Assembly: GCA_035362275.1 (NCBI GenBank)
Contig: DAOSDI010000001.1
Location: forward strand, 22,777 to 86,776
Direction of reading: 5' to 3'
Source: Candidatus Pacearchaeota archaeon
Lineage (GTDB): Bacteria > Patescibacteriota > Minisyncoccia > Minisyncoccales > UBA5738
DNA: 64,000 nucleotides
Made by a program: the position numbers and the translations under genes. Shown here piece by piece: positions 2,460 through 61,838 of this stretch; the first letter of the stretch is position 1, and each line of letters begins with the position of its first letter. The notes under the pieces were generated by a model. It was not told where the DNA came from, searched no databases, and was given only the letters and a program-made list of their open reading frames with translations.

Positions 2460-3434
2460 ATGAATAACTCCGACAAACCCGTCATTGCCCATATCCCCGA
2501 TTTTCTTGATTATTGCGAGATTGAAAAAGGGCTCTCGGAAAACACCCAAATAAATTACCGCCGGTACCTGCAAAAATTCATCAATTGGCTCAAATCCCAA
2601 AAAAAGGAGCAGATTTTGCCCCACGAACTGTCCGCCGACGATGTTTGGGCATATCGGGTGCATTTATCCCGTTTTATTGACCCGCAGGGCGGCAATTTGT
2701 CCAAGGCCACCCAAAACTACTACCTGATCGCTTTGCGCGCCTTGTTGGGCTATTTTACGGCCAAGGATATTGTTGCTTTGCCGGCGGACAAGATTAAACT
2801 GCCCAAAGATGCGCGAAAGGAAAAAACCGTCAAATTTCTGAATTTGGAACAGATTGAAAAGCTTTTGCTGGCACCCGATGAAGGTACCGCCGCGGGGGTC
2901 CGTGACCGCGCGATTTTGGAAACGCTGTTTTCCACCGGATTGAGAATTGCCGAATTGGTAAATTTGAATCGCGAGCAATTCGCAAATTTGCAGGAAAACA
3001 AAGAACTTGAACTGGGGATTATCGGCAAGGGCAAATATCCGCGCACGGTTTATTTTTCCGCCCGCGCCTTGGGATGGATTAAAAAATATTTAAAAATCCG
3101 CGATGAAATCTGCGAAAAGGAAGAAAAAGCGCTGTTTGTCAATTTTCGGGCGCACAAGAACGCCCCGCGGCGGTTGACCGCCCGGTCGATTGAACGAATG
3201 GTGAAAATCTGCGCGATTGGTGCCAGTGTGCCGCTGTTTACCACGCCGCACACCTTGCGCCATTCCATGGCCACCGATCTTTTGGCGCAGGGCGCGGATT
3301 TGCGCGCCATTCAGGAATTTTTGGGGCATCGCAGTATTATGACCACGCAAATCTACACTCACGTGACCAATAAACGTTTGCGCGACATCCACCGCCAATT
3401 CCATAGCGGCCGGCATCTAAAAAACGAGCATTGA
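2460..3434 (+). CDS. tyrosine site-specific recombinase, XerC/XerD-like
   Basis: C-terminal catalytic signature HTLRHSMATDLL...LGHRSIMTTQIYTHV (R-H-R-Y recombinase box). 324 aa. Confidence 0.85.
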   Translation: MNNSDKPVIAHIPDFLDYCEIEKGLSENTQINYRRYLQKFINWLKSQKKEQILPHELSADDVWAYRVHLSRFIDPQGGNLSKATQNYYLIALRALLGYFTAKDIVALPADKIKLPKDARKEKTVKFLNLEQIEKLLLAPDEGTAAGVRDRAILETLFSTGLRIAELVNLNREQFANLQENKELELGIIGKGKYPRTVYFSARALGWIKKYLKIRDEICEKEEKALFVNFRAHKNAPRRLTARSIERMVKICAIGASVPLFTTPHTLRHSMATDLLAQGADLRAIQEFLGHRSIMTTQIYTHVTNKRLRDIHRQFHSGRHLKNEH

Positions 3435-3508
3435 TTAATCCTTGATTGTCAAAGATTAAAGATTAAACCCGCCTTTGTTGAGAGGGTCTTTTAATGTCGC
3501 ACAATATT

Positions 3509-4141
3509 TTATTCAAATTCCACGGGGACAATCAGTTGGTTGTTGTGTTCGGAAAGTCCCGACGGATTATCTTTTTGCAAAATCAAGGTGCCGGCGGTCG
3601 TTGGCGGGGCCGTGAATTCAAACGTGGCCAGAAATTCAACAAAATCCTCGGTCATCCAATCGCTTTGCGCGGCGGCAGTGCCATTTGCCAGTTCATTGCC
3701 GTTTTCATCCATTAATTTTACCGGGAAAGATGCTTCAAAAAACCAGTTGCCGCGAGCTTTGCCGCTGATGATGAGCGGGCTGGCGATTTTTGCGTTCGGC
3801 CGCGGTGAATAGATCATTATCAAGTCGGCCAATTCCATTTCGTTGCCAATGTTTTGCGTGAATATTTTTCCGTCCGGAGTGGAACATCTTGCCGGATAAA
3901 TTTCCTCCACTGGATTGCCGCCGGCAACGCATTCTTGAAAATTTTTAATTCCGTTTTCTTCATTTTTGTTTTCTTCGGTCTTGACCGGCTCAATGGTTGC
4001 CGTACTTGAACGGTTTGCCGTTTTACCGGACATTACCGGCACCTTTGAGGATTGATATTGCACGAAAACAATCACTGCCCCGGTAAGCACAACTCCGATC
4101 ACCGAAATAATGGCCAATGCCATAATTTCTTTTTGATTCAT
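3509..4141 (-). CDS. membrane-anchored Gmad2/GerMN-like immunoglobulin-like domain protein
   Basis: N-terminal TM helix. The C-terminal region (GKARGNWFFEASFPVKLMDENG...ILQKDNPSGLSE...IVPVEFE) resembles the Gmad2 Ig-like domain. Confidence 0.5.
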   Translation of the reverse strand: MNQKEIMALAIISVIGVVLTGAVIVFVQYQSSKVPVMSGKTANRSSTATIEPVKTEENKNEENGIKNFQECVAGGNPVEEIYPARCSTPDGKIFTQNIGNEMELADLIMIYSPRPNAKIASPLIISGKARGNWFFEASFPVKLMDENGNELANGTAAAQSDWMTEDFVEFLATFEFTAPPTTAGTLILQKDNPSGLSEHNNQLIVPVEFE

Positions 4142-4163
4142 ATGTTTTAAATCCTAAACTTTT

Positions 4164-5231
4164 TTACGCGTTGGCTTTGATTTCGATCACATCGCCGTCT
4201 TTAACAACATACTCCTTGCCTTCGGTGCGCAAAAGCCCTTTTTCCCGGGCCGGGGAAAAGCCGCCGGCGTTAAGCAAATCTTGCCAATTGATCACTTCGG
4301 CGCGGATGAATTTTTTTTCAAAATCGGTGTGGATGACGCCGCCGGCTTTCGGGGCGGCATTTCCCTTTTTTAGCGTCCAGGCGCGGGTTTCATCCGGTCC
4401 GGTGGTGAAAAAAGTGATTAGTTCCAAAAGCTCGTAGGATTTTTTTATCAGCAAATCCAGATTTTCCCCCGAAGGCAGATTGAAATCTTCTTTTTCCGCG
4501 TCGGTGAGGCCTTCGCCGTCGCTTTCCCCCAAGATGTCAATCACGATATGCGGCAATTTTTCTCTTTCAAATTTTTCGGCGATATCCTTTCCGATTTCAT
4601 CGGGTTTGCCGTTTAAAACATAAAGGCGCGGCTTCATTGTGAGCAGTTGCAGGCGGTTGACATTCTTTTTTTCCTCCTCGGTGAATTCAGCTTCGGACAA
4701 TATTTTTCCCGCTTCCAAAAATGATTTCGCTTTTTGCAGGGCCTGCATTTCTTCTTTGGCGCCGGGCTTGTTGCCGCGCACTTCGCTTTCCACGGATTCA
4801 AGCCGCTTTGACGCCGTTTCCAAATCCTTTAGCGCCAATTCGGTGTCCAAGATTTCTTTGTCGCGCCAAGGATCAATTGAGTCCTGCGTATTGATGATTT
4901 TTTCGTTGCCAAAAGCGCGCAAAATATATAAAATTGCGTCGGTCTCCCGGATATTCTGCAAAAATTTATTGCCCAGACCCTCCCCTTGCGCGGCGCCCTT
5001 TACCAGCCCGGCGATGTCCACAAATTCTACCGTGGCATAGATTTTTTTTGCCGATTTGGTCAATTCCGCCAGCCGGTCAACGCGCTTGTCGGCAACCGGC
5101 ACCACGCCGATATTCGGCTCAATGGTGCAAAACGGATAGTTGGCGCATTCAGCCTGTTTTTTGGTGATGGCTTTGAATAATGTGGATTTGCCCACGTTGG
5201 GCAGGCCCACGATGCCCACATGAAGACTCAT
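4164..5231 (-). CDS. ychF: ribosome-binding ATPase YchF (Obg-family GTPase)
   Basis: MSLHVGIVGLPNVGKSTLF N-terminus and a TGS-like C-terminus. 355 aa. Confidence 0.9.
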   Translation of the reverse strand: MSLHVGIVGLPNVGKSTLFKAITKKQAECANYPFCTIEPNIGVVPVADKRVDRLAELTKSAKKIYATVEFVDIAGLVKGAAQGEGLGNKFLQNIRETDAILYILRAFGNEKIINTQDSIDPWRDKEILDTELALKDLETASKRLESVESEVRGNKPGAKEEMQALQKAKSFLEAGKILSEAEFTEEEKKNVNRLQLLTMKPRLYVLNGKPDEIGKDIAEKFEREKLPHIVIDILGESDGEGLTDAEKEDFNLPSGENLDLLIKKSYELLELITFFTTGPDETRAWTLKKGNAAPKAGGVIHTDFEKKFIRAEVINWQDLLNAGGFSPAREKGLLRTEGKEYVVKDGDVIEIKANA

Positions 5232-39638: not shown

Positions 39639-40760
39639 ATGGTATACAATCACATAACTTATTCTCTGAGTGAGCTGGATCTAAAAATGGTTCGTAGCGT
39701 GCCGCCTGGAGGAAATTGGAAAAATATACCCGAGGATATACCCTCCGAAAGGTTAAAACAAATTCGCAAAACTGGCGGGCGCACTACCCTGTACGGGAGA
39801 ATGGTATGGGAAAAACCGAGCTATACAATAACGACATATTTTAACAGGCCCGGAAATGGCACATATATCCACCCGGATTTTGACAGAGTTATCACTGCCA
39901 GAGAAGCGGCAAGGCTTCAATCTTTTCCCGATGACTTTATTTTTAAGGGGTCGAAAGGATCTTTTTGTGTTCAAATCGGAAATGCCGTTCCTCCGCTTTT
40001 ATCTTTTTCTTTCGCCGAAAAAATCAAAAAAGAAACCGGAGCAAAGAGATTGGTAGATTTATTTTGCGGTGCAGGTGGATTAAGCAAGGGTTTCGAATGG
40101 GCGGGTTTTGATATTATTGCTGCAAATGACAATTATCATGAAGCTTGCGAAACTTATAAAATCAATCATACACAAACTAAACTTGTCGAAGGCGACATAA
40201 CCGATAAGAAAATTAAAAATGCTTTATATGAGGCTATTGGCGATATTAAAGCTGATATTATCGTTGGGGGGCCGCCATGCCAAGGATTTTCGTATGCAGG
40301 AAAAAGATTTATAGATGATCCGCGCAATTTCTTATTTCGGGAATTTGTTGACGTAGTCAAGAAGGTAAAACCGTCTATTTTTCTTCTGGAAAATGTCGAA
40401 GGAATTATAACTAGCAATGAGGGAAAAACTTTCGAAAGCATCAAGGAGAGTTTTAAGGCATTGGGCTATAAATTAGCAGGAAAAAAAATTCACGCCGTTA
40501 CATACGGGGTTCCACAAAAGAGAAAACGTATTGTTTTGATCGGGGTCAAAAAAGGAAATCCTGAAAGTTTATTCCCTGATCCGGTGATAGAAGATGAAAA
40601 AAAATTTGTTTCAGTTAGAGATGCTATCGGCAACCTGCGAAGCCTACCGATTGGAGATATGATGGCAGATGAAAATCCTAATCCTGAAACAGACTATCAA
40701 AGGATGATGGCCGGATTGATGCACCCTAGAAAATTCATAAAAAATATTCGCGAGAATTAA
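39639..40760 (+). CDS. C5-cytosine DNA methyltransferase, circularly permuted (motifs IX-X before I-IV-VI-VIII)
   Basis: The N-terminal segment ...AREAARLQSFPDDFIFKGS...QIGNAVPPLL (motifs IX/X) precedes DLFCGAGGLS (I), GGPPCQGFS (IV), ENV (VI) and QKRKRIVLIG (VIII). Confidence 0.8.
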   Translation: MVYNHITYSLSELDLKMVRSVPPGGNWKNIPEDIPSERLKQIRKTGGRTTLYGRMVWEKPSYTITTYFNRPGNGTYIHPDFDRVITAREAARLQSFPDDFIFKGSKGSFCVQIGNAVPPLLSFSFAEKIKKETGAKRLVDLFCGAGGLSKGFEWAGFDIIAANDNYHEACETYKINHTQTKLVEGDITDKKIKNALYEAIGDIKADIIVGGPPCQGFSYAGKRFIDDPRNFLFREFVDVVKKVKPSIFLLENVEGIITSNEGKTFESIKESFKALGYKLAGKKIHAVTYGVPQKRKRIVLIGVKKGNPESLFPDPVIEDEKKFVSVRDAIGNLRSLPIGDMMADENPNPETDYQRMMAGLMHPRKFIKNIREN

Positions 40761-42145
40761 GATTGATCAAATTGCGTTTCCGCATCGTTCGCCAGCGAAA
40801 CAAATGCTTCCAAGATTTTTGAATCCGCCCTTTTAATATTTTTGGTTTCCAATACCAAAAGAATTTCACTAATAATTTTATCAATCGTTGGATTGTTCCA
40901 CTTTTTTTGGTTCCTATTTGCCTTATTTTTGTAATCAGCTAATGATTCAAACGCAACGCGGATACATCTGGTTGCATTTTTCTTTTTATTTGCGCTTGAT
41001 AACTCCTTGGGAATAATTTTCCCAGGGCCGGCTTTGGGATCAAATTCTTCAAATTTATAATCCCAAAATGAGTATTCAGGATGCAAAAAACACTTAAGAT
41101 AGTCATCAAAACCAGCCTCGCTAATCATTGAGAAGATGATCAGAATGTGATGAAGATTAGTTCTCATCAATTTGCTGAGCAGGAGAGCATCATCCTCTGT
41201 TTGAACTTTATTCTTTAATCTATCCCAAATTGATTTAGAGTGCCAAGAAATAACAATTTCGCCTGATTTCTCATCAGCTATGAGCTGCTTAACGTCGGAA
41301 AGCGTAATTCTGTTATTCTTTTTACTATTACAGTTTTTGCAAAGTGGATTAAACTTGGGACGATGTGTAAATCCTAGCGATATTGGGCCTATGTGATCTG
41401 CCGTCATTTTTCTTTCCTTGCCGCAATCTGGACATTTCATTAACGGAGCATACCCCTGATATTCGCCCATTAGGCGATTAGACAGATTCCAATTCCCATC
41501 AGCCCAATTCTCATACGCTCTACGATCTTGCGTGTACCGAGAAAGATTAGCTTTTAGCCGCCCTGTGTCTTCCTTGCTTCTGCAGCAACCATTGTAAGTA
41601 TGGAAACCATCAAGCCGATCTGGCGGATTGCTCATTACTCCCGGGCTAAGCCTAGATTGCCGGTTATTTTCAATAAAAGAAAGGATATCTTTATCATCAA
41701 CGTTAGCTGGTATATTAAATATTTTCCTTATTTTTGCATAACTATCCTTTGAGGTTTTATTAAGACGGCCAATTGTCTGACCTATGGTTTCTTGGTATGG
41801 TTTTAGCTTTAATTTTGAAAAAGCAGAATTAATCTTTTTAAGCGTATTTTTATTTGGATAAACATAGAAAATGCTTAATTTTTTTCCACAAATTTGGCAC
41901 GGTTTAAAACCGTGAAGTTCTTTCGGGTGTATGGCACGCGCAACGTCCGCTCGGTCATTAACGCCTAGTTCTTTTATCTTGCTATCCCACCATTTTGCAC
42001 GTTGCTTATCTGACGGAGAAACCCATTTAATCTTTCCGTTGCCGTTAAACTTATTCGGCATTGAGGCATAGTTTGGATGAGAAACTATTATCTTCATGTA
42101 GCCGGCAAATTTCCGATCCCAAGTCCGTTTAATTCTTTTAGCCAT
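40757..42145 (-). CDS. putative type IIS-like restriction endonuclease with an HNH-type active site
   Basis: Convergent with the two methyltransferases. CPDCGKERKMTADHIGPISLGF...NPLCKNCNSKKNN resembles the HNH motif (C-x2-C...DH...N...C-x2-C). Confidence 0.5.
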   Translation of the reverse strand: MAKRIKRTWDRKFAGYMKIIVSHPNYASMPNKFNGNGKIKWVSPSDKQRAKWWDSKIKELGVNDRADVARAIHPKELHGFKPCQICGKKLSIFYVYPNKNTLKKINSAFSKLKLKPYQETIGQTIGRLNKTSKDSYAKIRKIFNIPANVDDKDILSFIENNRQSRLSPGVMSNPPDRLDGFHTYNGCCRSKEDTGRLKANLSRYTQDRRAYENWADGNWNLSNRLMGEYQGYAPLMKCPDCGKERKMTADHIGPISLGFTHRPKFNPLCKNCNSKKNNRITLSDVKQLIADEKSGEIVISWHSKSIWDRLKNKVQTEDDALLLSKLMRTNLHHILIIFSMISEAGFDDYLKCFLHPEYSFWDYKFEEFDPKAGPGKIIPKELSSANKKKNATRCIRVAFESLADYKNKANRNQKKWNNPTIDKIISEILLVLETKNIKRADSKILEAFVSLANDAETQFDQS

Positions 42146-42148
42146 ATC

Positions 42149-42379
42149 TTATTCGATAAAAAAACTTAGATCCTTTTTATAAACCTTTGCAAAATCTTTG
42201 AGCTGAATTATATCAATCTTTCTTTGACCAGCTTCAATTTTCGAAACGTAAGATTGAGATTTCCCAATCAATTTTGCAACTTCGGCTTGGTCTAGATCGG
42301 CCTGAGCACGAGCTTGTTTCAACCTCCCTATTATTAATAAGTGATCTTTTGAATAAATAGTTTTCCCCATATTTAGCAT
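42149..42379 (-). CDS. XRE-family HTH controller (C-) protein upstream of the endonuclease gene
   Basis: LKQARAQADLDQAEVAKLIGKSQSYVSKIEAG HTH_3 motif. 76 aa. Sits immediately upstream of, and co-oriented with, the REase. Confidence 0.65.
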   Translation of the reverse strand: MLNMGKTIYSKDHLLIIGRLKQARAQADLDQAEVAKLIGKSQSYVSKIEAGQRKIDIIQLKDFAKVYKKDLSFFIE

Positions 42380-42394
42380 TTGTTATATATATGA

Positions 42395-42430
42395 TATATT
42401 CCATATTGTAATATTCCAAAATGGAATATA
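42395..42430. promoter_or_regulatory. putative C-box-like operator upstream of the controller gene
   Basis: Palindrome atattccaaaatggaatat plus an additional atattcca half-site, within about 50 bp upstream of the C gene. Confidence 0.4.
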
Positions 42431-42469
42431 GATATGCTTTTATACTTTATTTGACTATCATTACATTTA

Positions 42470-42503
42470 TAAAAAAGCGAAGCCTGCTGGCTTCGATTTA
42501 TAT
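42470..42503 (-). terminator. intrinsic-terminator-like hairpin (same motif as 33954-33985)
   Basis: Minus strand reads atcgaagccagcaggcttcg followed by ctttttt. Confidence 0.5.
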
Positions 42504-42936
42504 ATTTTAAATGCAAAATTATCCCCTTTTACCCCCCCACCTTGCGGCCAAAATGCGTTGGCCTGAGCCCAATTCGAGCCCGGCTGCCCCTTTGCGGGCG
42601 GAGTTTTTTGGCGCGCAAAAATGTTATGTTTAAATATAACATAAATATAACATTTTTATTTTCTTGAATAACCACATTCAACCTTGAAGCGCAGTCTTTG
42701 TCCGCAACACTTACTTTTTGAGATCAGGTAAACGAGCGAACAATTGACTAAAAGCAAATAATCCGATATAATAGCAATATGTTAATTATGATAATGTCAA
42801 ATTCGCGAGAGCCCATTGCGCAAACTGCTTGCGGGCCTTTTGTATTGTCATAATTTTTTTCATTTGGAATAAAATAATTTTGGCAATACGCCCCGCAAGC
42901 GGGGTTTTTGTTTTGCGTAAAATTAATTATTCTACT

Positions 42937-43352
42937 ATGAAATCCAAAAACAACTCGATTTTTCATCTAACGAGGCATCGTTCAGATGTCTCAATTGCCA
43001 TGAAATCATCTCAAACCAAGCATGGGGCACCAGCCATCGCAACCACTGCCCATTATGTCTTTGGTGCAAACATGTAGACTTGAAAACTCCGGGAGACCGG
43101 CGTTCCGAGTGCCAGGCAAGAATGAAACCGATTGGTTTAACAACAAAGACTAAGGGAGAATTAGCTATCGTTCACGAGTGTTTGAAATGCGGCAGATTAT
43201 CTTCAAATCGCATCGCCGGAGACGACGATCCGTATTCAATACTCTCCTTGCTTGATTTGCCGGTCCAAAACCGAAGAATTCCGATGCTGGCTCTGGAAGA
43301 CCGGGAGCAAGTATTAACAGCTTTGTTCGGTTATAATCATCCGGATATATAA
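42937..43352 (+). pseudogene. RNHCP-domain protein, reading frame broken at an A5 tract (42946-42950)
   Basis: Frame 0 encodes ...RCLNCHEIISNQAWGTSHRNHCPLCLWCKHVDLKTPGDRRSECQARMKPIG...DDD (RNHCP motif) but has no start. The only ATG (42937) is in frame 1 and reads MKSK. A6 instead of A5 gives the continuous protein MKSKKQLDFSSNEASFRCLNCHE... Confidence 0.55.
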
Positions 43353-43439: not shown

Positions 43440-43640
43440 CATGCTGGCCGTCTGGGACGAAGTTGGTCGCGTAAAACTCGCTATGCTTGCCACGCGACTC
43501 GCGTAAAATATTACTTGAATTATATGAAATAAGTACTTCAAATGCCCGGCTGTTAAGCCGCGTGATGAGGAGTATGGCGACGAATTTTACGCGGCTACGG
43601 GCATTATGTAGCGTTAGAACCGCTATTCAACTAGACAATA
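43440..43640. repeat. GC-rich repeat element, copy 1 (segment A ggccgtctgggacgaagttgg ... segment B gttaagccgcgtgatgaggagtatggcgacgaattttacgcggct)
   Basis: The 45-nt segment B is identical, and the 21-nt segment A near-identical, to 48481-48545, where the two are adjacent in the opposite order (B then A). Confidence 0.75.
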
Positions 43641-43875: not shown

Positions 43876-45852
43876 TTATGACTGTTTCACCAATTCCATG
43901 TGGATTTTTTTTGCTTCCGGATCGGTTAATCCAACATACGAAATCCTAATAGTATATTTGATTTTATCTCCAGTACCAAAAGAATCTTTTATCTGTATGC
44001 TCCAAATTTTATCATTGCCGATCCTGTTCTTTATCGATTGAATATACTCATCCGGATTATCGTTAATTCCCAGTTCCACATTAATATCCAAAGGTACAAG
44101 TTTATTAGATAGCTCAACCACCGGATTCACCCCCCCGCCTTTTATCCCCAAAAGTTCATCAACATTTATTTCTGCGAAATAAGCATTCTTCGACGCAATA
44201 ACTTCCGGTTTTAATTTATAAATGACCCCGCATTTCTTCCCATTAACTTCAATCATCCAACAATTATGTCGGTTACTCACTTCCGGAATAATTTCCGGCT
44301 GCCTGTAAATTATATCCGTACGGCCCAACATCCGCACCACCCTCTCAACACTTGATTTAAATGAATCTAAAACCTTCCCATCACCGCAAACAAATAATCC
44401 TAAGCTTTCAAATTCGTGGAATCCTCCGTTGCTTTTACCAAAAACCTTCCCAATCTCAAATAAATTAATAATTTCGATATTCTTTTTTAAATACTCGCGC
44501 GCTTGCCGTAAAAGCCCGTTCAATAATGTCTGCCTCAATTCCGGATGATTCTCGTTTATGGCGTTCTCTGTTTCAATTGCTTCCCATGGTAAATAATTTG
44601 CTTTTTTGCTTTCGCCTCTTTCTGTTAACGGCAATGATAATATCTCGTCAAAACCGCAAGAACTCAAAATTTCCTGGATTTTTTGCGAAGCCAAAATACG
44701 TTTTGGCGTAATATCCGGGACAACTTCAAACAACGGCGGTTTATTAACGGGAATTTTATTGTATCCGTAAATCCTGATTACTTCTTCGTACAAATCCTGC
44801 GGATATGACAAATCGGTCCTATATGAAGGACAAACTACCGAATGAATATTATTTTCGCCGGTTTCTTCAACTTCAAATTCAAGCCTCTTCAATATATCCA
44901 ATCCAACCACAGGTGCAATTTCTATGCCTGCGTAAATTGTTGGCATCGTCACGTCAAACTTAATTGACTTGTTTACCTTTTTTATTGGATAATATTCGAA
45001 AATTTGCGAAACTAATTCGCCGCCACAAATATCTTTCAGCATACCTATCATCAAATCCATTGCGAATTCGGCTCCTTCCGTATCAAGATCTTTCTCCAAA
45101 CGATTACTTGCTTCGGTTGTAAGCTTTGTACTTCGCGAATCGCGCCTTATAGCCGCACCATTATAAACGGCCATCTCCGCTACAATATCGGTTGTATTTA
45201 AATCAATGGCCGCCGCCTGCCCTCCAATAATACCTGCCAGCGCTAAAATTTTCTCATCATCCCTGATTACCAATTCATTCTTCTGCAGTAGCTCAATTGC
45301 TGAACCATCCAAAGTGGTAATTTTTTCATTTTTCCGAGCATTTGACCATCTCAAAGTTCCATTCAATTTTTTGTTATCCAGCAAATGCGAAGGATAACCT
45401 GTAAAAATCATTATGTAATTTGAAATATCAACAAGCGCATTCTTGCTATTTATATCGTAAACTTCCAGAAATTCCTGAAGCCATTGCGGCGATTGCTGGT
45501 TTCTAACTCCTGACATCCGCAAGGCAATAATTCTTTTAATCCCGTTATTTTTTGCCTCAATTTTGATCGGTAAAACCGGCAATCCCTGCCTACCTTCAAC
45601 TTTTCTCCCGGATAAAATCATCTTTAACCCATAATAAGCAGCTACTTCCCGCGCAATTCCCAAAACTGAAAAACAATCCGCCCGATTTTGCCGTATTTCA
45701 AAACTTAAAAGATAATCTCTTTTGCCCTGATATTCTATTTCTTTAAAATCATCCATCATAAAACCGCAAAATGTCATCGCTTCGCCGATTTCTTTTGGTT
45801 TTGCTTTTAATCCCGGAATCAATTGTAATAATTGGCTATAAATTACTTTCAT
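43876..45852 (-). CDS. pheT: phenylalanyl-tRNA synthetase beta subunit
   Basis: B3/B4-like region ...SFEIRQNRADCFSVLGIAREVAAYYGL. Immediately downstream of, and overlapping, pheS. 658 aa. Confidence 0.75.
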   Translation of the reverse strand: MKVIYSQLLQLIPGLKAKPKEIGEAMTFCGFMMDDFKEIEYQGKRDYLLSFEIRQNRADCFSVLGIAREVAAYYGLKMILSGRKVEGRQGLPVLPIKIEAKNNGIKRIIALRMSGVRNQQSPQWLQEFLEVYDINSKNALVDISNYIMIFTGYPSHLLDNKKLNGTLRWSNARKNEKITTLDGSAIELLQKNELVIRDDEKILALAGIIGGQAAAIDLNTTDIVAEMAVYNGAAIRRDSRSTKLTTEASNRLEKDLDTEGAEFAMDLMIGMLKDICGGELVSQIFEYYPIKKVNKSIKFDVTMPTIYAGIEIAPVVGLDILKRLEFEVEETGENNIHSVVCPSYRTDLSYPQDLYEEVIRIYGYNKIPVNKPPLFEVVPDITPKRILASQKIQEILSSCGFDEILSLPLTERGESKKANYLPWEAIETENAINENHPELRQTLLNGLLRQAREYLKKNIEIINLFEIGKVFGKSNGGFHEFESLGLFVCGDGKVLDSFKSSVERVVRMLGRTDIIYRQPEIIPEVSNRHNCWMIEVNGKKCGVIYKLKPEVIASKNAYFAEINVDELLGIKGGGVNPVVELSNKLVPLDINVELGINDNPDEYIQSIKNRIGNDKIWSIQIKDSFGTGDKIKYTIRISYVGLTDPEAKKIHMELVKQS

Positions 45853-46870
45853 ATTCGTAATATTTGTAACCTAGATTGCCCCCTAAGAGAGTTCTGATAT
45901 CGGTAATATTGTATTTGGCCATCACCCATCTGTCCAAACCCAGCCCAAACGCAAATCCCATCCACTTGCCATTGTCGATTCCTGCCATTTCCATCACGCG
46001 CGGATGGATTATTCCTGCACCGCCCATCTCAATCCAGCCAATCCCTTTGCACAATGGGCATCCCCTGCCTTTGCAATTAAAACACTGCATATCCGGCCCA
46101 ACTCCCGGTTCAACCTCCGGATAGTATTTATTTCTGTACCTAGTCACCACGTCCCTGCCATACATCTTCTCGAAAATCATGTTCAAGGTACCGAATAAAT
46201 CTTTCAAGCTTAATCTTTCCAATACTGCGACTCCCTGATAATGATGAAAAATGAAATGATTGCTTTTGTTTACTTTTTCATTCCTGTAAACCCTGCCTGG
46301 TGAAACAATCTTAAAGGGCGGTTTATAATTTGCTAACGTTCTTGATTCGATTGAGGACGTCTGGGTTCTCAGCAAAATATTCGGTTCTTTAATATATATT
46401 GTATCCTGCATTCCCCGGGCCGGATGATCGTCCGGCACATTCAATCTTTTGAAGCAATATTCGTCTTCCTCAATCTCCCGTCCATCCATTATGCTGTAAC
46501 CCATCGACGTAAAAATCGCATTCATCTCATTGATTGTGTTGGTAATCGGATGCAAATGGCCGATCTTGGGAATTTTATATTCAAACCGTTCCGCGTCCTG
46601 GACCAATATCTTTTCCTGTACCGCCTGGCCGTTTTTGGAAAACCGAGCCTCCGCCTCTTGCACCCGACATTCAATGTCCCGAACATAGGCGTTTATTTCC
46701 TGCCCTATCCTTTTTCTTTCCTCCGACTCAAGATCCTTCATCTGGCTGAATATGCCGCTAATTTTTCCCTTCTTGCCTAAATATTGCGCCGAAAAAGCCT
46801 TCAGATCCTGAAGGCCGTTAATCTTATTTAGATCGGCTTCAACTTCCTGTTTTAATTCCGATAAATTCAT
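45836..46870 (-). CDS. pheS: phenylalanyl-tRNA synthetase alpha subunit, with a Cys-rich insertion
   Basis: Class II motif 2 (GRVYRNE) and motif 3 (GFAFGLGLDRWVMAKYNITDIRTL). Extra CFNCKGRGCPLCKG zinc-knuckle-like insert. Confidence 0.85.
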   Translation of the reverse strand: MNLSELKQEVEADLNKINGLQDLKAFSAQYLGKKGKISGIFSQMKDLESEERKRIGQEINAYVRDIECRVQEAEARFSKNGQAVQEKILVQDAERFEYKIPKIGHLHPITNTINEMNAIFTSMGYSIMDGREIEEDEYCFKRLNVPDDHPARGMQDTIYIKEPNILLRTQTSSIESRTLANYKPPFKIVSPGRVYRNEKVNKSNHFIFHHYQGVAVLERLSLKDLFGTLNMIFEKMYGRDVVTRYRNKYYPEVEPGVGPDMQCFNCKGRGCPLCKGIGWIEMGGAGIIHPRVMEMAGIDNGKWMGFAFGLGLDRWVMAKYNITDIRTLLGGNLGYKYYEYESNL

Positions 46871-47009: not shown

Positions 47010-48152
47010 TCAAATCTTTGAGTTTATTTCATTGATTGCAGATTCTCCAAGGTCTGCGAGCAATTCAAGGCAATGGAAATAACGATCTTCCAGTGAAAAC
47101 CCGTTTGTAAATCCTAGTTTTGAATCCAGATATTCAAGGCTCAACCCCTCATTCCTTAATTCTAAATATTTTTTAAAACTAACAGAAACAAGAACCTTGG
47201 CCAACATCAAATCATTCTCCGTAAGATTTGACGAATTCAGATAAAGCTCAGTAAGTCTTTGGACATAAGTCGCAATGCCTTTTTCCCAGGAATAGACCAA
47301 ACTTGAAAAAGATTTTGGCAAAAAATCGATGTTGTCATTTGCTCTCAAATCACCTTGTTCAAAAAAATATACGCGCTTTACTTCATTAACATCGGGATTC
47401 TTGATAAGAAAAGCCAAAGTTTCAAAATATTCATCCGGTGTTACATTTGAAAACGCCGCCGCATTTGTTTTGATCATCGTCAATGCTTCGACAAAAGTGT
47501 TAGCCGAAAAATAACTTTTTACGCTTGCTATGCTGGCTTGTCGGCCAATTAAAGTACTTATAAGTGCGGAATCTTCATCTTCTATAGTATTTTGCTGTTT
47601 TTCTGTTGCTTTTGCGCCAGTTTCTGCAAACGATTTTCCTACAAAATTTAGAACGATATAAGTTGCCTCCAATAAGGGCAGATTATCTTGCTGATGACAT
47701 TCTTTATCCCCATTTTTAAAATTATAAATGAATTCAACGGCATCTTTGACTTTTTTTGAAACCGATCCTTCATTCATAAAAAAATTGTAACTTTTTTGCC
47801 GGTTAGCGGTCATTCCATTGCGCAAATAGTAATAATGGATAAGGGGTGTGAGACCAAAATATATCGCTACTTCTTTTATTGATGCAGATGTGGTCTCGTT
47901 GGCGGGGTCAAAAACATTTAGCAGTCGGTAAAAATTTTCCTTAAGCCATCCAATACCGCCAGCCCGATAAAGAAAATCATGCCCAGGGATTGATCTTTCC
48001 TGGTAAGTCAGCCGTCCCGATAAAGTTTCGGAATTATTAAACATATTTGAAGCAAGAATATGATTTGGACATATTCTTTTCATGTAATCAAGTCGATTTA
48101 AAAGTGTGCCGTGAAAACCAATGTTAATTTTTTTCGAGGCACCATTTTCCAT
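47010..48152 (-). CDS. C-terminal part of a putative 475-aa nucleotidyltransferase-domain protein (frame broken at the T7/A7 tract 48128-48134)
   Basis: 380-aa ORF with no recognisable motif. An 8-A tract would fuse it in frame to the upstream 111-aa NTase-domain ORF. Confidence 0.4.
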   Translation of the reverse strand: MENGASKKINIGFHGTLLNRLDYMKRICPNHILASNMFNNSETLSGRLTYQERSIPGHDFLYRAGGIGWLKENFYRLLNVFDPANETTSASIKEVAIYFGLTPLIHYYYLRNGMTANRQKSYNFFMNEGSVSKKVKDAVEFIYNFKNGDKECHQQDNLPLLEATYIVLNFVGKSFAETGAKATEKQQNTIEDEDSALISTLIGRQASIASVKSYFSANTFVEALTMIKTNAAAFSNVTPDEYFETLAFLIKNPDVNEVKRVYFFEQGDLRANDNIDFLPKSFSSLVYSWEKGIATYVQRLTELYLNSSNLTENDLMLAKVLVSVSFKKYLELRNEGLSLEYLDSKLGFTNGFSLEDRYFHCLELLADLGESAINEINSKI

Positions 48153-48433
48153 GGCTTGTCCTTAATGCAATAATCAATTGCAGTATCCTTATTCTCTAAA
48201 CTTTCTGCTATTTTTCGAAATATTTCTTTAATCGCATCAAGATCTTTTTTGTTTAAAAAACTTTTATTTACATAAAAATGAATGTCGAAGTCCTGGTATT
48301 CTTTATTTTTAAAATTTTGGTTGTTCGCGGAACTTCCAATACAAAAAACCGCCTCGAGGCTTGGAATGTATTTTTTTAACGCCCATCCTTCCTCTGCAAA
48401 TCGGTGTTTAACGGACGAAATTATTTTTTCCAT
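48098..48433 (-). CDS. nucleotidyltransferase (Pol-beta superfamily) domain, N-terminal part of the same putative gene
   Basis: FCIGSSANNQNFKNKEYQDFDIHFYV matches the GS-x(9-14)-DxD NTase signature. Confidence 0.55.
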   Translation of the reverse strand: MEKIISSVKHRFAEEGWALKKYIPSLEAVFCIGSSANNQNFKNKEYQDFDIHFYVNKSFLNKKDLDAIKEIFRKIAESLENKDTAIDYCIKDKPWKMVPRKKLTLVFTAHF

Positions 48434-48476: not shown

Positions 48477-48545
48477 CATGTTAAGCCGCGTGATGAGGAG
48501 TATGGCGACGAATTTTACGCGGCTGGCCGTCCGGGACGAAGTTGG
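48477..48545. repeat. GC-rich repeat element, copy 2 (B-A order)
   Basis: gttaagccgcgtgatgaggagtatggcgacgaattttacgcggct followed directly by ggccgtccgggacgaagttgg. Folds as two hairpins (agccgcgu/acgcggcu; gccgu/acggc). Confidence 0.75.
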
Positions 48546-48596: not shown

Positions 48597-48980
48597 TTAC
48601 GCTTTGTTCAGCGTACTTTCGCAACCTGAACATATCCTCGCGGTTGGAAATGCCGCCAGCCTCTCGGCGGGAATATCGCGGTCGCAATTTTCGCATTTTC
48701 CATATGTACCGTTCGCGATCTTGCCAAGCGCCACGTTGATATCGGATAATTTTTGTGCCAAGATCTTTGCGACAGCCAATTGCTTTCCGTATTCTTCGGA
48801 TTCGTCAGTTTTAGTTTCACGAGCTTCATGGCCCGTCTCGCTACCGCTGGAAGTGAACTTGCTTTGCCACTCGCTTGGATTTTTCTTGCTTTGGACGGCG
48901 ATTTTTGCCAGCTGGCTTGAAATTTGCCGCTTTTCGTTTTCGAGTTCGGACTTATATTTTTCCAACAATTGTTTTTCCAT
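48597..48980 (-). CDS. DksA/TraR-family C4 zinc-finger protein
   Basis: N-terminal coiled coil and C-terminal CENCDRDIPAERL...ARICSGCES (C4). Confidence 0.7.
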   Translation of the reverse strand: MEKQLLEKYKSELENEKRQISSQLAKIAVQSKKNPSEWQSKFTSSGSETGHEARETKTDESEEYGKQLAVAKILAQKLSDINVALGKIANGTYGKCENCDRDIPAERLAAFPTARICSGCESTLNKA

Positions 48981-56519: not shown

Positions 56520-56900
56520 CAAGAGGGAGCCTCCGTCTTTCGCGATTCGTGAGCGGAAAATTTTAGCAAAAATTTTCATCAGGACGGCCGCTTGTCCCGA
56601 ATAAAGTGAAGGATCATGCCGCTTAATTGTGGGCGATGAAGGAACCCGCCTTCGTTGAAACTTCGGCGAGGCAAAGTCGGACCTTCGGCCTCCGTCTTTT
56701 GCGATTCGTGAGCGGAAATAATTTTATGTTCAAGTATTAGTTTTTTGGTGGGCGCGGAAGGAATCGGACCTTCGGCCTCCGTCTTATCAGGACGGCGTTA
56801 TACCACTTAACTACGCGCCCCTGCGCCCACCAAAGAACTATTAAATTGAAAATTATTTCATCAGGACGGCGTTATACCACTTAACTAATCGCCCGAAAAC
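56520..56900. repeat. cluster of degenerate partial tRNA copies and internal direct repeats around the tRNA-Ile gene
   Basis: A 5' tRNA half (GGGCGAT TA GTTAAGTGGTATAAC GCCGTCC TGATGA) lies at 56858-56899. An acceptor/T-arm fragment with complementary ATCGCCC lies at 56625-56653. An anticodon-arm fragment lies at 56577-56600. The plus-strand string cctccgtcttt[ct]gcgattcgtgagcggaaa occurs twice, at 56529 and 56687. Confidence 0.7.
56746..56820 (-). tRNA. tRNA-Ile (anticodon GAT), CCA encoded, atypical T-loop (C55)
   Basis: Manual fold. Acceptor GGGCGCG/CGCGCCC, D-arm GTTA/TAAC, anticodon stem CCGTC/GACGG with loop CTGATAA, T-arm GAAGG-TCCGATT-CCTTC. Confidence 0.6.
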
Positions 56901-59467: not shown

Positions 59468-61080
<1,613 letters not shown>

Positions 61081-61838
61081 AAGAGTCCAAGACAACTTCA
61101 AAAAATTCTTTCAGTGCGCGTTTTAATTTGCGCACCTTGCGTGCTTTTGTTAAAGCGCACGCGACTTTTGGCTCACGAAATATTTTTGTGGAAAATTAAA
61201 AATATTTCGCTATTCAATTTTGGAAGTTCTCGCCCCTCTGAAAGTTTGAAATTCAATGCTTGTTAAAAACAAACAAAAAATCATAATATCATACAATTTA
61301 TTATGACTTTTTTCTTGCGGTTAACTTTTTGCCAAAACGCTCACTTGCTTGGGCAACAACTGCAGGAGCAGATGCAAGTTTTGGGCGCCACTTTTTTCTT
61401 GTTGGTTTTTTTTGCAGGTGCTTTTTTGTCCGCCATGTTTTTGTATTAACTCGGCAACAATGACAGCTTACCTTTTTTTAAAATCAATGTCAAGGACTTG
61501 CGTTTCCTGTCAAATTTTTCCAAAACGGGTTGAAAAAATTTGAAAGAAAAAGGTGGAAAAATCCGCTATAATTATTATGCAAAAAAAAATAATTGTAGCA
61601 AGAATTAAAATCGAAATCCTTCTATTTCTTTTCCGCCTCATATTTTCATCTCCTATTCTCTGGAGAATAGGAGGCAATGAACAATTGTTATTATTATTGC
61701 TATTCCTAATGTTTTTTCCTCCCTTTCCGGCAGTTCCAAATGCCGGGCATAAGCAAGTGTATAGCCCAACCGCTTCCGATTGTCAATGGTTGTGTTTCCT
61801 CTTTGGTTTTGCTAGGATGGACAATCAAGAATTCCTTT

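Follow-up and report, generated by a model that had tools for sequence, protein, structure and literature searches.

A nucleotidyltransferase gene of an undescribed family, probably present as a natural null allele in a Yanofskyibacterium-like patescibacterium

The aminoglycoside adenylyltransferases AadA/ANT(3'')(9) and AAD(9) (PDB 7uy4, 5luh, 6fzb, 4cs6 and 6sxj) combine an N-terminal nucleotidyltransferase (NTase) domain of the Pol-beta superfamily, marked by a GS motif, a DxD motif and a third carboxylate, with a helical domain, in a protein of about 250-290 amino acids (aa). They are the best structural matches of the protein described here, which is encoded in a 64,000-nucleotide (nt) stretch of DNA (hereafter the window; GenBank assembly GCA_035362275.1, contig DAOSDI010000001.1, positions 22,777 to 86,776 of the forward strand). 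The locus appears in the window as two overlapping open reading frames (ORFs) of 111 and 380 codons. It is one 474-aa nucleotidyltransferase gene of an undescribed family, probably carried here as a natural null allele.

The family shares with AadA the order of an NTase domain and a helical domain and differs from it in several respects. Sequence identity is only 9-14%, and every Pfam and NCBIfam model stays below its cut-off. The additional length is due to a C-terminal module of about 200 residues without a structural match. The family has invariant motifs of its own, namely D(K/R)(P/H)WK, NIGxH, GGxGW and WExG...QRLxE, and its genes lie beside tRNA-synthetase genes, unlike the resistance-gene context of AadA. 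The window protein also differs in being near neutral in charge; the isoelectric points of the members are scattered from 5.1 to 9.8 and give no help in guessing the substrate. Four short members (263-284 aa) have the size of AadA and consist of the two AadA-like domains only, three of them with sub-threshold Polbeta or NTP_transf_2 matches.

Other described enzymes are more distant. The sole sequence-level signal came from ANT(6) streptomycin adenylyltransferase (PF04439; 8vxb), through the pattern hhhGS...(Y/F)QD(F/Y)DI(H/T)F. YQDFDIHF of the window aligns with FQDYDITFF of ANT(6)-Ib, and the family profile searched against PDB recovered this motif only (E = 0.19); the ANT(6) structure is a poor overall match (E = 0.15, template modelling score (TM) 0.27). 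In Foldseek comparisons, the matches following AadA and AAD(9) were ANT(4') kanamycin nucleotidyltransferase (1kan, 6un8; E of about 0.03, probability 0.97-0.98) and the small MNT antitoxins of MNT-HEPN systems (MntA/HepT; 6m6u, 7bxo, 8xeo), whose NTase core matched without significance (E = 0.08-0.3). The last helical bundle of the protein is faintly HEPN-like (1wol, 2hsb; TM (target) of about 0.4, probability of about 0.3), again without significance, and by eye no R-x4-6-H HEPN motif was seen in the conserved QRLxE segment. Unlike MNT-HEPN, the gene has no partner gene, and its product is four times larger.

The original prediction had compared the protein with cGAS/DncV-like nucleotidyltransferases (CD-NTases), oligoadenylate synthases (OAS) and class I CCA-adding enzymes, here without an effector. 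This assignment is very improbable indeed. All of these enzymes have an N-terminal Pol-beta NTase core with helical regions after it, a metallo-beta-lactamase (MBL)-fold hydrolase lies directly upstream of the gene in one clade, and the tRNA-synthetase neighbourhoods would suit a tRNA-directed enzyme. Some MBL-fold hydrolases degrade cyclic nucleotides. However, only the catalytic motif of the Pol-beta superfamily is held in common with CdnE-type enzymes and OAS. They were matched only at E of at least 0.18 and probability of at most 0.09 (CdnE 6e0m, 6e0o and 6wt9, E = 0.8-1.3, probability 0.06-0.09; OAS2 9h1z, E = 0.18-0.24, probability 0.08-0.09, root-mean-square deviation 26 Å), whereas the AadA and AAD(9) matches are significant. 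No CCA-adding enzyme stood among the 50 PDB matches listed, and none of 38 members matched a Pfam family of CD-NTase, SMODS, OAS or CCA enzymes (PolyA_pol and tRNA_NucTransf2 included). The gene is also dispensable and rare, unlike a housekeeping CCA enzyme. The prediction that no effector is adjacent, and that the locus is not a canonical cyclic-oligonucleotide-based anti-phage signalling (CBASS) operon, was borne out: neither the window nor about a dozen homologous contexts showed an effector gene, and PADLOC assigned the fused protein to none of its families.

The split gene and its intact protein

The two ORFs overlap by 55 nt at a run of seven A residues (A7), where the coding strand reads CCA TGG AAA ATG GTG CCT CGA AAA AAA TTA ACA. 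Insertion of one A in silico opened a single 474-aa frame, KDKPWKMVPRKK-INIGFHGTLLNRL, in which the junction reads PWKMVPRKK|INIGFHGTLLNRL. The segment PRKK|INIGFHGT of the fused protein is the family consensus in alignments of both 12 and 38 homologues. Homologues were found at E = 1e-78 to 1e-208, which supports the earlier proposal of a single Pol-beta-superfamily gene split by a one-base homopolymer frameshift; the proposed length of about 475 aa is exactly 474 aa, and the proposed read-through with eight A residues (A8) yields precisely a protein that occurs in other strains (see below).

Searches of 5.8 billion proteins with the fused sequence returned 12 homologues, 10 of them full length (465-497 aa), with 36-68% identity and 54 invariant columns in the 12-sequence alignment. 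An exhaustive profile search of 1.84 billion representatives gave 39 clusters only, and wherever a source names a member, the name is 'hypothetical protein'. The family is small and new to Pfam and NCBIfam, neither of which holds a model for it. Sub-threshold Pfam matches among 38 members were to Adenyl_transf (7), Polbeta (5) and NTP_transf_2 (3); the fused protein itself reached 14.8 bits against the Adenyl_transf cut-off of 22, over residues 27-58 only. NCBIfam gave no match for the fused protein and nothing useful for nine other members (ANT_9 at about 14 bits against 340 in distant members), and a PDB sequence search with the fused protein returned noise only.

AlphaFold2, run with the 12-sequence alignment, modelled the fused protein with a predicted local distance difference test score (pLDDT) of 89.2 and a predicted TM of 0.90. 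The model has an alpha-beta-alpha-beta-alpha-beta NTase core, matched to solved NTases by Foldseek at probability 1.00, with the sheet predicted to comprise strands 26-32, 46-55, 84-90, 103-112 and 136-140. The segment CIG33S34 follows strand 26-32, which fits the hG[GS] motif; the DxD motif D48-F-D50 lies on strand 46-55 and D92 at the end of strand 84-90. The predicted GS and DFD signature is present, with 13 rather than 14 residues in between (G33-S34-x13-D48-F49-D50). The third acidic residue that the original prediction had suggested seeking is D92, which is at least 90% conserved and, in all aligned members having an N-terminus, is either D or E. The top Foldseek matches in PDB, AadA/ANT(3'')(9) and AAD(9), had E = 4e-5 to 8e-4, probability 1.00 and TM (target) 0.51-0.57 over about 295 columns; superposition of both domains on AadA gave TM (target) 0.56 over about 295 columns.

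Beyond the frameshift, residues 103-145 complete the NTase sheet and residues 146-271 form an AadA-like helical domain in the model. The C-terminal region of 360 aa that had been called unrecognisable is thus recognisable up to residue 271, and the description holds for residues 272-474 only. This module, modelled alone, has an AlphaFold2 pLDDT of 93, and structural comparison of the model found no PDB match at E ≤ 0.001 (best E = 0.29). Across 30 members, its invariant residues are D370, W383, E384, Q392, R393 and E396. An internal tandem duplication of NTase and helical bundle was considered and rejected, with an hhalign probability of 2.4% between the N-terminal and C-terminal halves. The intact protein defines a very small family with a confident model, an AadA-like core and a C-terminal module without a PDB match.

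As in AadA and kanamycin nucleotidyltransferase, the intact protein would bind a nucleoside triphosphate with Mg2+ at the GS/DxD/D92 site and would pass the nucleoside monophosphate on to a hydroxyl group of an acceptor that sits between the NTase and helical domains, with the C-terminal module adding acceptor specificity. Three GC-rich distant members (P0037, P0038 and P0040, the last at positions 1529-2758 of locus L018) lack the N-terminal 75-96 residues with GS and DxD and start near a conserved Met97; in P0040, an S-adenosylmethionine (SAM) methyltransferase domain takes the place of the C-terminus. The three are probably catalytically dead as NTases, or repurposed.

Table 1. Positions of the split gene, its motifs and neighbouring features in the window
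Feature	Position	Strand	Remark
Whole gene, null allele	47010..48433	minus	ANT/KNTase-like nucleotidyltransferase of 474 aa, family without a model; 474 aa on addition of one A
5' ORF, 111 aa	48098..48433	minus	Residues 1-102 authentic (helix, GS motif, DFD, D92); last 9 out of frame
3' ORF, 380 aa	47010..48152	minus	Authentic from its I9 (residue 103 of the intact protein)
A7 tract, frameshift site	48128..48134	minus	A8 in conspecific intact alleles; zero frame CG A_AAA_AAA TTA
Codons G33-S34	48332..48337	minus	hG[GS] motif of Pol-beta NTases; G33 nearly invariant in 38 sequences
Codons D48-F49-D50	48284..48292	minus	Metal-binding DxD; D48 and D50 nearly invariant
Codon D92	48158..48160	minus	Probable third catalytic carboxylate; end of strand 84-90
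Codon H108	48111..48113	minus	Invariant; strand 103-112; downstream of frameshift
Codon E396	47247..47249	minus	Family-invariant; GAG>GAT (E396D) in some A7 strains
T7 tract (AAT TTT TTT ATG)	47778..47784	minus	T6 in one A7/E396D sublineage
C-terminal module, residues 272-474	47013..47621	minus	Alpha/beta subdomain and helical bundle
pheS	45836-46870	minus	Pfam; directly downstream of the NTase gene
pheT	43876-45852	minus	Pfam; downstream of pheS
DksA/TraR zinc-finger gene	48597-48980		Upstream neighbour of the NTase gene; dnaX beyond
B-A repeat, upstream copy	A 48479-48524, B 48522-48545	minus	Ends 45 nt before the ATG
Second repeat copy, beyond pheT	A 43551-43596, B 43443-43466		Order A, about 90 nt, B

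Two alleles in one species and the loss of the gene

The DnaX protein of the window is identical to entries from metagenome-assembled genomes (MAGs) named 'Candidatus Yanofskybacteria bacterium' (YFSK_3910) and 'Minisyncoccales bacterium', and a DksA protein at least 90% identical is annotated as Candidatus Yanofskyibacterium parasiticum. These protein identities make the host a Yanofskyibacterium-like patescibacterium. Ca. Yanofskyibacterium parasiticum lives in anaerobic bioreactors as an obligate parasite of Methanothrix, and the paper describing it does not mention the NTase gene (PMC10936435). Identical proteins of the locus have been deposited under four labels, 'Candidatus Pacearchaeota archaeon', 'Endomicrobiaceae bacterium', 'Minisyncoccales bacterium' and 'Candidatus Yanofskybacteria bacterium' (NCBI records HOI96944-HOI96949 and MDD3065666-MDD3065670). 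At least two of the four must be wrong through mis-binning; the Endomicrobiaceae and Pacearchaeota labels are probably binning or labelling errors.

A 474-aa protein found in the 90%-identity cluster of the 380-aa ORF (P0066) equals the reconstructed fusion residue for residue. Within the species, 23 contigs from at least 10 samples encode it intact with A8, in the order DksA - gene - pheS - pheT; the tract was A8 in 10 of 10 fetched loci of this protein (L021-L030), and a 106-kb JGI contig (L041) also has the protein in one uninterrupted frame. For the A7 allele, at least 23 contigs from at least 13 samples were counted; it is listed in 31 blocks of the index, and its 111-aa product is on record for 27 contigs. 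We read A7 in 14 sequences, namely the window and 13 fetched loci (L001, L002, L020 and L031-L040), comprising two Logan contigs 3-4 single-nucleotide polymorphisms (SNPs) away from the window sequence, a contig of a GTDB representative MAG, and 10 loci from ENA, NCBI and Logan. Since A8 and A7 each recur across many samples of the species, the frameshift is a natural, common polymorphism and not an assembly error. Annotation pipelines call at least two 'hypothetical proteins' at the locus. The original prediction held that firm support for seven A residues would make the gene a true pseudogene; A7 is indeed supported in at least 13 independent samples, but A8 is equally real elsewhere.

That the true genome has A8 and an intact gene, with A7 arising in sequencing or assembly, is extremely unlikely. 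Homopolymers are error-prone on some platforms, and the essential pheT gene is also disrupted in an old JGI assembly (L029) and an NCBI MAG contig (L032). Against an artefact, A7 recurs in independent samples and across assemblers (Logan, MEGAHIT/ENA and NCBI MAGs). MEGAHIT-style (k141) contigs yield both tract lengths, so the difference is independent of any one assembler, and private SNPs, such as 46337G/45542G/44935T, common to the window and L031, accompany A7. Secondary lesions in A7 strains, described below, are sensible only if the gene was already broken.

Over the 4.7 kb spanning the gene and pheST, 24 sequences differ at about 13 SNP sites only, and the A7 and A8 backgrounds are at least 99% identical. 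All A8 contigs share a single core haplotype, which also occurs with A7 (L033, L038); seven derived haplotypes carry A7 as well. The A7 haplotypes fail the four-gamete test among themselves (sites 45129 x 44935), which indicates that recombination is active. No sample with both alleles was seen among those listed, where consensus contigs would hide minor variants.

We favour, with somewhat better than even confidence, the reading of A7 as a recent loss-of-function allele. One A would have been lost from an ancestral A8 run coding the conserved R-K-K-I, and translation would stop after residue 102 and nine wrong residues. Because strands 84-90 and 103-112 share one sheet, this stop separates D48, D50 and D92 from the invariant H108. 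The A7 allele would then make no active enzyme, and the gene would be dispensable for the Yanofskyibacterium-like patescibacterium and undergoing loss in part of its population. The disruption lies inside a conserved domain, between D92 and H108, and an intact ancestral state exists. Orthologues code R-K-K-(I/M) with A-rich codons, and the run is A8 in three of them (P0003, P0004 and P0009), which argues that A7 is a one-base deletion from the ancestral state; elsewhere the region reads CGC AAG AAA ATT (P0006) or AGG AAA AAG (P0010), or holds six A residues (P0002).

The fused window sequence has no private change at any otherwise invariant column, and the window copy bears no lesion beyond A7. 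The ratio of nonsynonymous to synonymous substitution rates (dN/dS) is 0.12-0.18 among homologue pairs, with 0.176 for the two split lineages against 0.178 for the intact pair P0002-P0003; with dS near saturation, such pairwise values are blind to a recent relaxation of selection. Judged by these ratios, the gene is shown to have been under purifying selection until recently. The low long-term dN/dS and the otherwise undamaged window copy together indicate that the frameshift is recent.

Further inactivating changes were found in an A7 sublineage. E396, one of the six invariant residues of the C-terminal module, is changed to D in A7 strains L001 and L002 (T at 47247) and in protein P0070. A second frameshift, from T7 to T6, was deduced from proteins only, P0068 ending in ...SYNFL* and P0070 restarting at MNEGS...; the longest contig is 4941 nt for both, the two were assumed to share it, and its DNA was not fetched. 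In the sublineage with A7 and T6, the gene would lie in three pieces. Independent losses occur in other species. In that of P0006, the split allele has a one-base deletion about 25 codons upstream of the window site; the species also has an intact allele (P0071, ..FRKVAENFED..), whose protein suggests the loss of the G of CGAAAAG and not a change in an A run. The L017 species carries two frameshifts, a 4-nt deletion and a T-run shift.

Several observations weigh against this reading. Each tract length is common, with about 23 contigs on near-identical backgrounds, and consensus assemblies are blind to a coexistence of A7 and A8 in one clonal population. Two distal sites, and no others, are incompatible with the tract in the four-gamete test, and A7 also occurs on the core haplotype of the A8 contigs; recurrent mutation of the tract accounts for this as well as recombination does. 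The zero-frame sequence CG A_AAA_AAA TTA fits the slippery heptamer X_XXY_YYZ, and a -1 shift on it gives exactly ...PRKK-INIGFHGT, which would permit low-level read-through. The 380-aa ORF starts with an out-of-frame ATG preceded by AAGGA 6 nt upstream, and this fragment may still be made. The intact allele P0069 is also altered at a conserved residue (R120I), so the argument from extra lesions is weaker than it looks. Finally, activity and acceptor are predicted from fold and neighbourhood, at 9-14% identity to any solved enzyme.

The two common tract lengths recall contingency loci, in which replication slippage would set A8 = ON and A7 = OFF and both states would be kept as advantageous, for example while the cells parasitise Methanothrix or when phages or antibiotics exert pressure. 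Homopolymer-frameshift alleles, both those of contingency loci and those of pseudogenes in reduced genomes, show the same one-base poly-A change early in the ORF, and as in contingency loci both lengths are present in natural populations, with proteins of the two states identical in sequence. The early position of the tract is typical of such switches, and its incompatibility with the two distal sites and its occurrence on the shared haplotype are what slippage would leave. Phase variation is nevertheless unlikely. Recombination among A7 haplotypes can explain the incompatibility, the tract is not kept in relatives (P0006, P0010, P0002), and the gene is lost in the sister species through a deletion that, from its intact-allele protein, is apparently not a change of homopolymer length. 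Unlike in contingency loci, the secondary lesions suggest one-way decay: a second frameshift together with E396D would make OFF irreversible. The lack of any listed sample with both alleles points the same way.

Very unlikely, too, is a programmed -1 ribosomal frameshift or transcriptional slippage on A_AAA_AAA that yields the full-length enzyme together with the 111-aa product. Besides the slippery heptamer, the split allele of the P0006 species reads CAA AAG TAG, where a -1 slip of tRNA-Lys before the stop would restore the consensus. However, no stimulatory structure was found 5-9 nt downstream of the window site (fold z = -1.26, with the main hairpin enclosing the slip site), and by eye no Shine-Dalgarno-like stimulator is evident upstream at the usual distance. 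The frameshift is not conserved, conspecific strains and the orthologues outside the split lineages being in frame, and A7 strains tolerate later lesions. A run of seven A residues is short for efficient slippage by RNA polymerase.

It is likewise highly improbable that the 111-aa and 380-aa products reassemble non-covalently into a functional two-piece enzyme. The reading frames of both pieces remain open, the split allele is common, and the second ORF has start signals, but these are by-products of the conserved K-D-K-P-W codons. The cut falls between adjacent strands of the catalytic sheet, split points differ in three species, and further lesions accumulate.

With loss of function as the preferred reading, the window locus is a broken copy of an accessory gene, ordinary in itself. 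The split itself is genuinely polymorphic in the population of a recently described methanogen parasite, with the null allele in roughly half of the public assemblies.

Gene neighbourhood and linkage to phenylalanyl-tRNA synthetase genes

The gene lies between pheS and a DksA/TraR gene, at the coordinates originally given (Table 1). It had been described as solitary, a description contradicted by its linkage to phenylalanyl-tRNA synthetase (PheRS) genes, which recurs in three arrangements across divergent members. In the window species and the P0006 species, the order is gene, pheS, pheT, with a 24-nt gap in the P0006 species. In the P0009 and L017 species (loci L015 and L017), pheT precedes the gene by 27 nt. 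At locus L047, the gene is followed by an overlapping SAM methyltransferase gene and a monomeric PheS-type ligase. This locus holds two convergent PheS-type ligase genes (2625-4653), 34% identical, with tRNA-synt_2d and FDX-ACB domains in the mitochondrial-type architecture; both NCBIfam models, 'PheS-related mystery ligase SrmL' and pheS_mito, remained just below their cut-offs, and a literature search on 'SrmL / PheS-related mystery ligase' returned nothing relevant. The L047 set could be a small biosynthetic or self-resistance cluster.

Other synthetase genes lie near further members, with aspartyl-tRNA synthetase (AspRS) two genes away in L013 and class I lysyl-tRNA synthetase (LysRS) two genes away in L019. 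The MBL-fold hydrolase gene lies directly upstream of the family gene in L019, L044 and L046, a SAM methyltransferase gene adjoins it in L014 and is fused to it in P0040, and the neighbourhoods of P0002, P0003, P0004 and P0012 differ from one another. These neighbourhoods represent about 13 lineages, to which GTDB species representatives contributed 2 loci and JGI metagenomes 8. By a rough estimate from few loci and an assumed genome size, PheRS adjacency in three arrangements among about 13 lineages would arise by chance with a probability of the order of 1e-4, which makes chance very unlikely.

Because members repeatedly adjoin PheRS and other tRNA-synthetase genes, the acceptor of the NTase would most likely belong to aminoacyl-tRNA metabolism, as a tRNA, a synthetase or an aminoacyl-adenylate-like compound; this is the least certain step of the proposed mechanism. 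The recurring linkage offers a testable lead to such a function. A more far-reaching proposal, in which a synthetase-associated NTase family acts on tRNA(Phe), the synthetase or an aminoacyl-adenylate-like compound and is switched by A7/A8 slippage in an archaeon-parasitic patescibacterium, is quite unlikely. The locus would gain importance if either the PheRS link or true phase variation were confirmed; to our knowledge, no contingency locus has yet been described in the candidate phyla radiation, where a slippage switch would be the first.

Two pheT genes of the species appear split, by a one-base insertion in the old JGI draft (L029, 2759-4736) and by a 25-nt deletion in NCBI MAG GCA_028690525.1 (L032, 2797-4748). 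These splits are probably assembly errors, and they call for caution with single frameshifts in these data sets.

Repeats and other features around the locus

A GC-rich repeat, which the original prediction had correctly placed 45 nt upstream of the gene start, consists of a 24-nt element B and a 46-nt element A. The latter is an exact direct repeat, with its second copy beyond pheT; the upstream copy is a contiguous B-A unit. In all strains with a fetched locus extending to both ends, the repeat pair brackets the NTase-pheS-pheT block, and repeat A is the exact point at which many short-read contigs break. The B-A repeat had no match in Rfam, its folds were not or only marginally better than those of shuffled sequences (z = -0.58 and -1.98), and it was absent from the fetched loci of other species. 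The element may mark an island boundary, serve as a recombination site or be what is left of a gene end. In one locus of the same species (L024, 5073-5548), the spacer between A and B measures about 415 nt against about 90 nt. Because the enlarged spacer holds an 88-aa GIY-YIG endonuclease ORF, it suggests, from gene content, a homing-endonuclease-type insertion into the repeat element.

Beyond the downstream repeat lies a strain-variable island. In the window (39639-43352), it carries an RNHCP-domain gene, a helix-turn-helix (HTH) controller, an Alw26I-type HNH restriction endonuclease and a C5 cytosine methyltransferase; in L022 (5700-12556), NYN, MazE-like, N6/N4 methyltransferase and DUF87 genes are found instead.

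Two further features lie elsewhere in the window. The bacterial 16S rRNA gene (59473-61081) is 1609 nt long against a model of 1533 positions, an excess of about 75 bases; rRNA genes of Patescibacteria commonly contain insertions. Close to a tRNA gene (56749-56820), a 35-nt segment is repeated 74 nt away with 94% identity (56786-56894), and a 31-nt repeat with copies 159 nt apart has 97% identity (56529-56718). The repeats at 56529-56894 may have arisen by partial duplication of a tRNA gene, possibly as traces of integration.

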